DNA from: Octopus vulgaris
Lineage: Eukaryota
Direction: 5' to 3'
Assembly (NCBI GenBank): GCA_951406725.2
Contig: OX597842.1
Location: forward strand, 8,246,001-8,310,000
DNA: 64,000 nucleotides
Shown here: in pieces, positions 9,860 through 28,979 of the stretch
Numbering within the stretch: position 1 is the first letter of the stretch
How the letters are laid out: each line of letters begins with the position of its first letter
The notes under the pieces: generated by a model
What the model was told of the DNA's origin: nothing
Seen by the model: only the letters and a program-made list of their open reading frames with translations
Database searches by the model: none
Position numbers and translations under genes: made by a program

Positions 9860-10197
9860 CTAATATTTAACACTCTCATTACATATATCGGGAATATTTG
9901 GAGAGGGAGTATTTTCAATTACTTCTTTAAGCAAATTTATTAGTAGAGATACAGCACCAATTATAAATAAGAGAAAAAGTATCGAGTTGAATAGCTTCAT
10001 GCGGGCATACATCCTTCGGCGACGAATTTCATCCCTTCTCGTGCCTTCTTCGTTTTCTGGATACACTGTGAGCAAATCCCGATAGCATCCAAATAGCATA
10101 CGACATTCATGTTTGCTCTTGTAGCGGGCAATGGCCATGAGGATAGCACTGAATACTGACACTGATGACATCACCAACGAATAACTGAGTATATGGT
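9860..10197 (-). CDS. Cys-loop receptor terminal exon copy C (tail ...[28 protein letters not shown]), candidate alternative last exon
   Basis: Intact acceptor ttttgcctttgttttacag|AC, 338 nt, open to TAG. M3 and loop are near-identical to A/B, while M4 and the tail are strongly diverged. The spliced product would be 413 aa. Confidence 0.75.
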
Positions 10198-10594
10198 CTG
10201 TAAAACAAAGGCAAAAATAACAGACACACACACACACACATATATATATATACATACATACATTTATATATATATATTTATATATATATATAAATGTATG
10301 TATGTATATATATATACATTTATATATATATATATATATATATATATATATATATATATATATATATACATTTATATATATATATGTATATATATATATA
10401 CACATAGAAGTAAATATATGGCACAACGAAGTACCGATATTTACTGGAAAATAGCGAACGTAATAATACGACGCTAATGTATAGCTTCACCGTGTATATA
10501 CTAACAAAAATGCGTGAGTGTAACAAACTTGAAAAAAATTGTCTTACCCCCAGGGAGAACATCTGAAAGATAAAACACCTAGAAAGGAATAATG

Positions 10595-10660
10595 TGGGAC
10601 CGGTTTCAGATTTTTCAAGATATGCCTGCACACATATACTTGATCTATCTTCATCAGCCA
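10595..10660 (-). ncRNA. Hammerhead ribozyme motif, sense to the receptor gene
   Basis: tgg CTGATGA agat-long loop-atct GAAAC cg GTC cca. Stem I is extendable (aatg-t-tgg/ccacatt). Confidence 0.65.
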
Positions 10661-10794
10661 ACATTACTTCTATGTATAATTTTCCCTCACGGGCTATTCT
10701 TTACTGGAAAGCAATACTCTCGTATTGCATTACTATTTTATATATATATATATATATATATATATATATATATATATATATATATATATATATA

Positions 10795-11142
10795 TATAAA
10801 CGGCAGTTTGTCTGTGTGTGTTTCTGTGTGTCTGTTAGGTTGTACCCTCACCCTGAAACTTAACACACACATAGCCCAATGTCATAATTCAAAACTAACG
10901 CAGAGAAAATTTTGAAAAGTTCCCCCAGTTCCGAAAAAATCGATAAATTCGACATGGGGTCGAGAATCAGAAACACAAACCACAGACTGTCTAGGGGACG
11001 CAACTCGACCGTTTTAACTCTCAAAAAAAAATTTACCATAATTTTTTTTCAATTTTTTTGCTATTTTTTGGCTATAACTCTCTAAAAATGCTTTATAGTT
11101 ATTTCCCTTACAAACCCGAGCAACGCCGGGCGATACTGCTAG
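10795..11142 (+). mobile_element. Non-autonomous Helitron (3' end shared with 3996-4587)
   Basis: Same 3' hairpin and CTAG|T. The 5' end is buried in (TA)n. Confidence 0.7.
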
Positions 11143-25165: not shown

Positions 25166-25725
25166 TCCGTTCATCTTCATGAGTCAAATGAAAATATGGA
25201 ACTTTTACTTCATGCCTTTGCCTATGAAAGATACCCAGTTTGTAAGGAAGAGAAATGTCAGGTTTGAGTATATTGTAGAAAAGTTTCCCCAAATCACACA
25301 GGCGAAGTTGAAAGAGGGTATCTTTGTCGGACCCCAAATTAGAGAAGTACTCAAAGATGTCGACATCAAGACAACACTGGATGAACTGGAACTGCTTTCA
25401 ATTGGACCTGTGAGAATTTCTTGGGCAACAAGAAGGCAATGGACTACAAGGATGGCGTCAAGAATCTTCCGAAATGTTACTTAGCAATGATTGTCGCATG
25501 TCGCTGAAGGTTCACGTCTTGGACTCCCATCAGGATTTCTTCACAAATAACTTTGGAGCAGTGTCTGATGGACATAGTGAAATATTTCGCCGGGACATTA
25601 GTGCTATGGAGAAACGGTATCAAGGCTTCCGGAAGGACAGTATGCTGGCTGACTACTGCTGGACACTTTACCGTGATCAACCAGATCAGGAACGCCGCAG
25701 GAAATCCAAATTACAATGTTTCTAA
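25166..25725 (+). pseudogene. C-terminal relic of a Chapaev3/CMC-like DNA transposase
   Basis: KFPQITQAKLKEGIFVGPQIR and MSLKVHVLDSHQDFF...GAVSD...DISAMEKRYQG...MLADYCW in two frames. Confidence 0.7.
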
Positions 25726-26875
25726 CTCTGTTGTTCTAGGTTTGTTTTGTCTGTAAAAATTAACACTTCCTTCTCCAGGCCTAGATTCGAAACCGAATCT
25801 AAGAATTCTTGGGCGTCCAAACCACCACGATCAACAAGCGCGAAAAAAGCTTTTCTTTGTCCTGTTAAAAAGTGATTAATCATTTCCCTTTGACCTACGA
25901 CCTCAGCCATGTCAGCTGAAGTTCAAATGGACAGGAGCTGACCTATTTAGGTACAAACTCTGTTGCAGTATGTCTGTCCTTCTAGCTGCCACGATTATTA
26001 TAAATACGATGATCGACAGACAGACAGACAGACCAGAGGAGAAACGCCCAGCAGGCAAACGAGAAAGATCTACGACACGTCAGGTTTTCAACGACCGCAG
26101 AGACCCGAGAGTAATGTTCGAAGTTCCACGGTAGGCTACTGATCTCAGATGAACTACGTACACACTCACACAAACAATGATTTCTGACACATCACTTCCA
26201 CAGATGTACCTCTCTTTTACTCTTTTACTTGTTTCAATCATTTGACTGCGGCCATGCTGGAGCACCGCCTTTAGTCGAGCAAATCGACCCCGGGAGTTGC
26301 GCATAAAATAATCTAGTCCAGCTTTTCCATTTCATGTCCTAATACATCTGCTGTAGCTGTGTAGTCCTATCCTGGACAAACACTTCCTCTGGCAGGTGCC
26401 GCAAATGTAGCGAAGACTTTGCCTGGCTGGTTGTAATGTCATAGTTTCTTGTTGACGTCTTTTCTTGTCTTTCCATTTCTCCTCTCTCTCTCTGTCACTC
26501 CTTTGTGTTCCCTCTTCTACGGTACATCGCCAATCTCCACGGTTGCTGTCAATTGCTTCCCAGTTGCTAATATTGATGTCGCATTAACGTAATGTTATTA
26601 CGTTAATGATTTCATATATACAAATATGTAAATATTTGCATGTGTCTACTCAAAAACTGATACGTGTTGCATACAAATGGAATAAAATTTTGAAATCAAC
26701 ATGAAAAATTAGTCTAAAAATGTTGGTTTGCATTCATAATGAGTACAATGCATTTAATTTCATTAACCAGTGTTATTACACAATCCATTATGTAGTCTCA
26801 GTTGCTGCTGTATGTTTGCTTGAAAATACATATTGAAATTGAAAATTATGGAAATATTATTTGCAGAGTTATTGA

Positions 26876-28350
26876 GTACTACTAGCGAACAGTGGTCCCG
26901 GTGTACGCTCACGCGCACTCGCGCATCCGTGCTAGCTAGTCGTAAGTAGTCGATCCTACAACGACTTGCGCGTATGCAAAAGTTTATAAACAAACTAAGG
27001 TTAGGGTTACTGTTTTACTGTTTTACTTGTTTCAGTCATTTGACTGCGGTCATGCTGGAGCACCGCCTTTAATCGAGCAACTCGACCCCAGGACATATTC
27101 TTTTATAAGCCTAGTACTTATTCTATCGGTCTCTTTTGCCGAACAGCTAAGTAACGGGGACATAAACACTAGGGGACAAACACAGACACACAGACACACA
27201 CAAGCATATATATATATATACATATATACGACGGGCTTCTTTCAGTTTCCGTCTACCAAATCCACTCACAAGGCTTTGGTCGGCCCGTGGCTATAGTAGA
27301 AGACACTTGCCCAAGGTGCCACGCAGTGAGACTGAACCCGGAACCATGTGGCTGGTAGACAAGCTACTTACCACACAGCCACTCCTGCGCCTATGGGGAT
27401 TAGGGTTAAAATTTTTTTTTTAATTATTTACTTTGCGTTTTATTTACTTTGTTCGAAAAATATTATTTAATTTGTGTAAAGAAATTATATACATTGTTTT
27501 TAAAAAAACCCATTTTCTTTGATATGTATTCAGCCTTGAAATACAAACATGTATCGCGCGTGCGCGAATCTTTTCATTTCCATACGTGCAAGTCGTTGTA
27601 ATTTAGTTTAAGTTAATTTTTTGGCTCAAAAAGCAAAAGCAAGGCCATGTAGGAGGACATGGAGTTATGCACAGGGAGGGTGTTCATGCAAAGAGTTCAG
27701 GCCATTTCTGGTCAAGAGAGACTTTGAACCGAGCGGTCGTGGGTATCTTCACCATCTCATCCGGCAGCTTATTCCACGGATCCGCAACCCGGACCGAGAA
27801 AGACCCTCTCCTTCGATTGAGATGAAATCGTCGTAGATAGAGCTTTTCGGAGTGACCCCGCAGCTGACGCTCTGGAGCAGGTGTGAAGAACAGCTCTTTC
27901 GAGAGGTTACACTTTCCGCTTATGATGTTGTGAGCGAGAATGAGATCACCACAGCGGTGTCGTTTATCGAGAGAATAAAGGTCGAGCGTCTTCAGCCTTT
28001 CTTCATAAGACAAATGCTTGAGACCAAGAACCATGCGGGTAGCCAGCTTCTGGACTCTTTCGAGATGATGTATGTCTTTGAGAAGATAAGGAGAAGAGGC
28101 TTGAATCCCGTACTCCAAAACGGGTCTCACCAGCGTGACATAGAGCGGTAGGAATATGGCTGCTGTGAGCATTCCGAATGACCGTCGAATCAAAAACAGA
28201 ACTCCGCGTGCTTTGTTGGCAGCATGGACGCATTGGGCCGAAGGCCAAAAGGAAGAATCCACCAAGAAACCCAGTAGGATCGACTACTTACGACTAGCTA
28301 GCGCGGATGCGCGAGTGCGCGCACCGGGGACCACGGTTCGCTAGTAGTAC
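26876..28350. mobile_element. ~80-bp inverted repeats bracketing a SINE (27020-27393, -) and a CR1-like LINE 3' end (27606-28270, -)
   Basis: gtactactagcgaac...gtcgatcctac (26876-26959) versus gtaggatcgac...gttcgctagtagtac (28273-28350). Confidence 0.65.
27606..28270 (-). mobile_element. CR1-clade LINE, 5'-truncated (RT C-terminus plus 3' UTR)
   Basis: LYVTLVRPVLEYG...LERVQKLATR...YEERLKTL...RGHSEKL...FSVRVADPWNKLP, ending in a short ttaac-type tail. Confidence 0.88.
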
Positions 28351-28452
28351 CGAGTTATTGTATTAGCAAATGAAAAATATGTTATGGAGAATAAATAATA
28401 TTTAAAAAATTTACACACACACAAGTTCGAAAATGTAGTTGAAAATACTTAC

Positions 28453-28979
28453 AGAATATCGGCACAGTCTCGAGATCCATGTTCTTTGGAAAATTCTGCG
28501 AGAACGCCATGAAGTAGGTGACGAACGCCAGGAAGTTGGTGATACTGAGCGAGATCTGTTCTCCGCTCTCCGGAGGCGAGAAAAAAGAGAGCGATGCGAT
28601 GAAAACGAGAAGGCTGCACGGTATTAAACTGCTGAATACATGGTAGATTGACTTCCGTTCAGCAGATACAAGGAACATGATGCTTCTGTTGGTTCCCGTT
28701 CTGTTACATTTGTGCTCCGAGATCACGATGTTGAACCAACTGCGCCGCGAATCCTCGTAGAGTACTTTCAACTTGCTTTCTGATGAGGCGTAAACGAGAT
28801 TCATGTTCTGTGCAGAGATGCTGCTTTTGATGATGATCGGACAAGTTTGTTCGTCGAAAGGGAAGTGTAACATGTTGAGTGTGCACAGCGTCGTGAAACT
28901 TCGATAGATGGTCGCTGTGATGGTACCGCTGGTAGTGATGTCCACTATATCGAAGGCGATTTCGTGCGGCTCAACAGCA
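28453..28979 (-). CDS. Cys-loop receptor exon 5: Cys-loop (CTLNMLHFPFDEQTC), loops B/C region, M1, M2 (ESGEQISLSITNFLAF), M2-M3 linker
   Basis: C-x13-C with FPFD; pre-M1 R-K; PESGE before M2; L at position 9'. Acceptor ccaag|T GCT GTT completes the AG|T Ser from exon 4. Donor TTC T|gtaagt (phase 1). 527 nt. Confidence 0.95.

Follow-up and report, generated by a model that had tools for sequence, protein, structure and literature searches.

Homologous C-terminal exons are swapped in 77 of 236 human events of tandem duplicated exon substitution, often together with membrane helices (PMC9741552). In the Cys-loop family, the nematode gene avr-14 (GluCl-alpha3) gives A and B subunits with different C-terminal regions (PMC8841521). 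The diversity of molluscan nicotinic acetylcholine receptors (nAChRs) has been attributed to retroposition and tandem gene duplication, and the term 'alternative splicing' is absent from the text of that report (PMC6896357). The chemotactile receptors (CRs) have intronless coding sequences and are tandem genes, as described in PMC11526382 and PMC13174522. The window analysed here is a stretch of 64,000 nucleotides of the Octopus vulgaris genome (GCA_951406725.2, contig OX597842.1, positions 8,246,001 to 8,310,000). It contains, on the minus strand from 55848 to 9860, a six-exon Cys-loop gene in which exons 1-5 are single-copy and the last exon is present three times, as A, B, and C.

The octopus locus differs from these systems in age and layout. 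The human events are mostly ancient and conservative, whereas the octopus copies are mutually 91-97% identical, an identity that excludes chance likeness, and with their amino-acid-biased change they look caught early. Unlike avr-14, the octopus gene has three young copies and a common pore (M1-M2), and only the part from M3 to the tail is swapped. The original prediction knew of no description of such an arrangement for cephalopod CRs. Among the listed matches of the literature searches, none reports this gene or a comparable cassette for a channel of cephalopods, but the human C-terminal swaps and avr-14 are precedents, and a long-read isoform annotation of O. vulgaris on the O. sinensis genome (PMC9699675) may already contain the isoforms.

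Exons 1-4 were located by tblastn with the O. sinensis orthologue XP_036369744.1. The parts of the gene, in window positions, are as follows.

55767..55848, minus strand: exon 1, coding part from the first ATG (signal peptide); tblastn with the O. sinensis protein; GT donor
49425..49564, minus strand: exon 2; placed with the O. sinensis orthologue; GT-AG
44245..44289, minus strand: exon 3 (15 amino acids); placed with the O. sinensis orthologue; GT-AG
33424..33533, minus strand: exon 4; placed with the O. sinensis orthologue; GT-AG
28453..28979, minus strand: exon 5, with the Cys loop, loops B and C, M1 and M2; phase-1 donor gtaagt; single copy in the genome
22927..23258, minus strand: last exon copy A, 332 nt, with M3, short loop, M4, and tail; 411-residue form; stop TAA
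19489..19820, minus strand: last exon copy B, 332 nt; 411-residue form; stop TAA; nearest to the end of the O. sinensis RefSeq protein
9860..10197, minus strand: last exon copy C, 338 nt; 413-residue form; divergent M4 and tail; stop TAG

All five introns are of the GT-AG type. Exon 5 ends in ATATTCT, followed directly by the donor gtaagt, and the acceptor ttttgcctttgttttacag precedes an initial AC in each of A, B, and C. These three acceptors each have a pyrimidine share of 0.80, and the phase-1 frame is open in all three copies. Joined to the upstream exons, the frames contain zero internal stops. No internal donor motif is present in A, B, or C or in the 250 nt after each. The acceptor of exon 5 itself (28980-29010, ending in ctcaccaag) is weak, with a T share of 0.30 compared with 0.50-0.70 in the other six.

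DNA and protein searches of the 2.8-Gb genome returned three matches to the last exon, all inside the window, and no further copy lies in three neighbouring 10-kb stretches (30 kb). Exon 5 has one copy in the genome, the next match being only 29% identical. A search with the full protein found one copy each of exons 1, 2, 4, and 5; the 15-residue exon 3 was not scored. The structure is one of tandem duplicated terminal exons in the same phase, each with its own acceptor and stop, behind single upstream exons. The coordinates and sequence features first proposed for the locus (donor, three copies, acceptors, open frames, and own stops) are all correct, and the six-exon frames reproduce the proposed protein lengths of 411, 411, and 413 residues. 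The absence of a second copy of exons 2-5 from the window, also proposed, holds genome-wide for exons 2, 4, and 5.

The best reading of this structure, and a probable one, is an alternative choice of last exon from one donor. Exon 5 would be spliced to whichever of the three copies is chosen, giving three subunits that have a common ligand-binding domain and pore and would differ mainly in the lipid-facing M4 and the outer tail. Two kinds of evidence bear on it, namely contigs from sequencing runs and the divergence between the copies.

Sequence words of exon 5 are present in 16 of 24 listed runs, none of which (0/16) is on record as RNA. The contigs of four of the 16 runs (X1, X2, X7, and X14) were compared with 429 nt around C, a stretch without long repeat and without exon 5. 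In X1 record 8 (990 nt), the match to the last exon stops exactly at 10197, with 773 more letters beyond. In X2 record 24 (311 nt), which comes from another study, the match stops at the same position, with 22 more letters beyond. In a genomic contig, whichever copy it came from, the match would extend by 19 nt or more into the acceptor tract that the copies have in common, and these two contigs are therefore read as spliced. The 773 nt fits within the 904 nt of the upstream coding exons. The contigs of X1 total 100 million letters, compared with about 3,000 million read for X14, and from this small total X1 is probably an RNA library.

Three contigs of X1 diverge from one common stretch, 9972-10010. 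Record 4 is of C type: over 185 nt it departs from C once, whereas 25-27 differences would be expected of A or B, and 43 nt of C's own flank are part of it. Record 5 is of A type, carrying the A state at 3 of the 4 sites that can be read. Record 6 is of B type, with 4 differences, as expected of B. Three 3' types in X1 count for several last exons, because no more than two would come from a diploid carrying a single last exon. In X2, record 24 combines the acceptor end with B states at 3 readable sites on a single contig. The three X1 types and the splice-type ends fit the splicing of more than one copy to exon 5, but no single record connects exon 5 with C or fixes the position of the B type. 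The proposal of one module spliced to three ends thus has real though indirect backing from splice-type ends in two studies, three 3' types, and the amino-acid-biased divergence described below. Mixed pentamers, which the original prediction also considered, may or may not follow from this. Contig depths are 6.7, 8.9, and 4.7 for the C, A, and B types in X1, and 38.9 for C type versus 71.5 for non-C in X14. These depths fit co-expression and a 1:2 ratio, but they measure neither levels nor copy numbers and are not counted as evidence. Likewise, no inference is drawn from gaps in depth (X1 and X2 at 10200-10238, X7 on the exon, and X2 and X14 at 9870-9929).

A and B differ at 11 of 332 nt, in 10 codons, and every change alters the amino acid. 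Their flanks differ at 9 of 886 aligned bases (about 1%). The excess of exon changes over the flank rate is significant by Fisher's test (p=0.009), as is that of replacement sites over flanks and silent sites combined (p=0.0008); the divergence tests were picked after the data were seen. A and C show 5 differences in the first 217 nt and 25 in the last 115 (p=1e-8), and 18 of the 22 residue changes between them fall at residues 374-411, which are M4 and the tail in the AlphaFold model. Between A, B, and C there is little difference in M3 and the loop. The three ends are therefore not three different modules running from M3 to the tail, as the original prediction had it, since the differences lie in M4 and the tail. 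A separate observation concerns position 9971 in exon C and the equivalent site in A and B. A silent change from CTC to CTG occurs there in the A-type and C-type contigs of X1, and is absent from the B type of X1 and from all three reference copies. The shared change may point to an old polymorphism or to gene conversion among the copies.

The copies lie in the following duplicated units, with these candidate signals and one adjacent repeat.

21937..23529, no strand assigned: duplicated unit with A (acceptor, exon, and 3' flank), by self-blastn and alignment; ends in dispersed repeat and TA microsatellite
18504..20155, no strand assigned: duplicated unit with B, by self-blastn and alignment; flanks 1% different from the A unit
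22705..22710, minus strand: AATAAA, candidate poly(A) signal, 217 nt after stop A
19267..19272, minus strand: AATAAA, candidate poly(A) signal, 217 nt after stop B
9468..9473, minus strand: AATAAA, candidate poly(A) signal, 387 nt after stop C, within the adjacent repeat; the first AATAAA of C
9272..9848, no strand assigned: dispersed repeat beside C, by self-blastn; 11 nt after stop C

Each about 1.6 kb long, the units of A and B lie 1.8 kb apart; both start in a dispersed repeat and end in a TA microsatellite. The likeness of A and C is limited to the exon with about 24 nt ahead of the acceptor and about 25 nt past A's stop. Copy C has a microsatellite before the exon and the dispersed repeat inserted 11 nt beyond its stop. 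This repeat, to which Pfam gave no match, is presumably mariner-like, judging by a motif.

The arrangement suggests how the ends might be chosen and how they might have arisen. The acceptors are near-identical and every copy is followed by an AATAAA of its own. The choice would therefore be decided by competition, with polyadenylation after a nearer copy set against splicing on to one farther away, in line with general knowledge of alternative last exons. The copies would have come from tandem duplication among repeats, C first and A/B later. Selection, perhaps along with gene conversion, would then have made M4 and the tail diverge, with M3 and the loop remaining similar.

Several points weigh against an alternative choice of last exons, and some of them fit a rival account. 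According to this account, which we regard as unlikely but serious, one last exon works and the others are young duplicates that decay or drift, and the extra RNA types represent alleles, pooled animals, or transcripts that read through the first poly(A) site. The transcript evidence consists of contigs only, which conceal rare forms and give no phase of C relative to exon 5; the RNA status of the runs is guessed, and animals were possibly pooled. No record in the examined contigs joins exon 5 to C, and the letters beyond 10197 are assigned to exon 5 by inference. X1 record 5 has the B state at one site. The two acceptor-end contigs, which look like non-reference alleles, match neither reference A nor reference B in the first 65 nt, and neither has the B state at 10135. 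In the first 30 nt (10168-10197), both have 5 differences to C, where reference A would give 1 and B 3, and the outer end of M3 thus seems to vary among animals. In those animals, what is typed as A and B could be two alleles at a single position. In O. sinensis, the cluster comprises one protein, and neither an A nor a C isoform is annotated.

The divergence data are also not uniform. The lack of synonymous changes (zero of 11) between A and B, taken alone, gives p=0.06-0.07. The replacement/silent ratio between A and C is about 2, an excess that is not significant (p=0.19). An open frame is weak evidence by itself, as a frame stays stop-free after 30 random changes in 28% of cases, and C's flanks have been lost to the microsatellite and the inserted repeat. 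In muscle nAChR, most single changes in M4 and post-M4, as well as tail deletions, had small effects (PMC9260303). For this reason, weak constraint may account for the fast change in this region, and a last-exon swap more likely tunes than switches function.

Other features of B and C speak against idle duplicates. A dead B would be expected to differ from A at about 3 nt, given the flank rate, but 11 differences are observed, all of them amino-acid changing. C retains the acceptor tract, an indel-free frame, both hydrophobic helices, and the tail cysteine, although flank likeness beyond about 25 nt is gone. C also sits 13 kb beyond A's stop, yet it has its own contig in X1.

That the three exons are separate whole-gene paralogues or haplotypes, collapsed or mis-joined in the assembly, is very improbable: the A and B flanks are only 1% apart, which we take to be within the range of alleles, and a gap of 100 N interrupts the sequence upstream of exon 1 (62616-62715), but no second exon 1, 2, 4, or 5 turned up in the genome search, no exon remnant lies between the copies, the units of A and B measure only 1.6 kb, differ in their outer flanks, and have no gap close by, and the C intron-exon border appears with 0 differences in X14 record 16, from an unrelated, DNA-sized run of a third study.

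The alternative choice of last exons can also be viewed against the relatives of the gene. XP_036369744.1 of O. sinensis is an orthologue, 97% identical over exon 5, and XP_014780908.1 of O. bimaculoides is another, about 84% identical over exon 5. The end of the O. sinensis RefSeq protein is B-like, with 4 of 109 differences to B and 7 of 108 to A, and has the B state at 7 of 10 A/B sites. The O. bimaculoides model runs through the exon 5 donor and is without the last exon. A search of 1.84 billion representatives found no relative above 32% identity beyond these two orthologues. Protein searches, made with exon C among longer proteins and with exon A among proteins of near length, gave the O. 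sinensis protein only, or nothing. Exons 1-4 (55848-33424) have 81-94% protein identity to O. sinensis, compared with 97% for exon 5, so that the ligand-binding half is also fast-changing.

The protein is an nAChR-like Cys-loop channel. It matches PF02931 (E=1.6e-31) and PF02932 (E=4.3e-11), contains the C158-C172 loop (C-x13-C), and has nAChR subunits as its best fold matches (TM 0.65-0.78). The AlphaFold model was built for the orthologue from a 105-row alignment, with a pLDDT of 86.6. The last exon in this model comprises M3 (300-327), a short loop, a long helix with M4 (353-396), and the tail, and M1-M4 are all present. Compared with alpha-type open reading frames (ORFs) of the same genome, the features of an nAChR alpha subunit are missing. 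Ala stands in loop A and Ser or a gap in loop B, and loop C, shorter by 8 residues, is without Tyr-x-Cys-Cys. M2 starts with GEQ; cation channels have GEK at this position. The subunit is predicted from these residues to be non-alpha, cation-type, and not to bind acetylcholine. M4 is the lipid-exposed helix of the family, and post-M4 matters for folding and function in some members (PMC9260303). The effect of the three ends would be on gating, lipid sensitivity, or assembly, as a matter of tuning, and not on the main binding site.

The gene was also considered as a CR, the original prediction having called it a chemotactile-type receptor. Membership is rejected, as the gene has five introns, lies on C29 outside the array on C15, and falls outside the CR clade in both trees. 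The CR array of this genome consists of 24 intronless ORFs at C15:56.91-57.42 Mb (L001-L004 and L006-L025), of about 360-430 residues with one longer. The array ORF L007 matches CRT1 with E=2e-234. The CR clade has a support of 1.0 in FastTree (136 rows) or 100 in a quick IQ-TREE tree (59 of the 136 rows). A member of the CR-like molluscan clade (PMC13174522) would be expected beside the CRs, together with other molluscan sequences. FastTree places the gene with a Patella protein, sister to the CRs, at 0.91. The IQ-TREE tree places it in another group at 99, with a long-branch warning, and the deeper placement thus differs between the two. Another intronless divergent nAChR-like ORF, L005 (C25:41332400-41334800), also lies outside the CR array and clade.

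Like the CRs (CRT1, PDB 9e6b), the gene product is nAChR-derived, has about 410 residues and a short M3-M4 loop, and has lost the acetylcholine-binding residues, namely the loop A Tyr, the loop B Trp, and the loop C Tyr-x-Cys-Cys. Both also have F8', L9', and Y14' in M2 (prime numbering). Further marks of the CRs are expression in the sucker epithelium and gating by hydrophobic compounds. Unlike the members of the array, to which it is 19-29% identical, the gene was diversified by exon rather than gene duplication. The lost acetylcholine residues, the short loop, and some M2 residues suggest that it may work like a CR. A peripheral chemosensory-type channel is the likeliest role, at not quite an even chance, and an accessory subunit of heteromers is a possible role of somewhat lower standing.

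The remaining features of the window are repetitive or degenerate. Between B and C, a 646-codon open frame (12731-14668, minus strand) has a weak reverse transcriptase match (PF00078, E=1e-4, below the cut-off). A GIY-YIG-like frame in intron 5 (23845-24279, minus strand; PF01541, E=4e-4, below the cut-off) is what we take to be a fragment of a Penelope-type element. Tandem arrays of about 185-nt units, built from dispersed repeats, occupy 29904-32732 in intron 4 and 35301-36707 in intron 3. A degenerate tandem array with long low-complexity open frames spans 59350-62530 and is followed by the 100-N gap, about 6.8 kb upstream of exon 1.

These results draw attention to an orphan, fast-changing octopus channel outside the CR family, whose ends are missed or truncated in current gene models. 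If confirmed, the locus would represent a young duplicated-last-exon cassette in a cephalopod Cys-loop channel. Its products would be three natural subunits that differ almost only in M4 and the tail, providing a test of the role of M4 and post-M4 in gating, lipid sensing, and assembly. A bolder view, which we consider a long shot, is that an octopus-specific sensory channel outside the CRs builds a receptor repertoire inside one gene. Positive selection would act on M4 and the tail of the three ends, possibly at a membrane-side site for hydrophobic compounds, and the ends would be chosen or mixed to give pentamers of different sensitivity. If true, such a repertoire in one gene would add, alongside the intronless CR array, a second way of diversifying ionotropic chemoreceptors.

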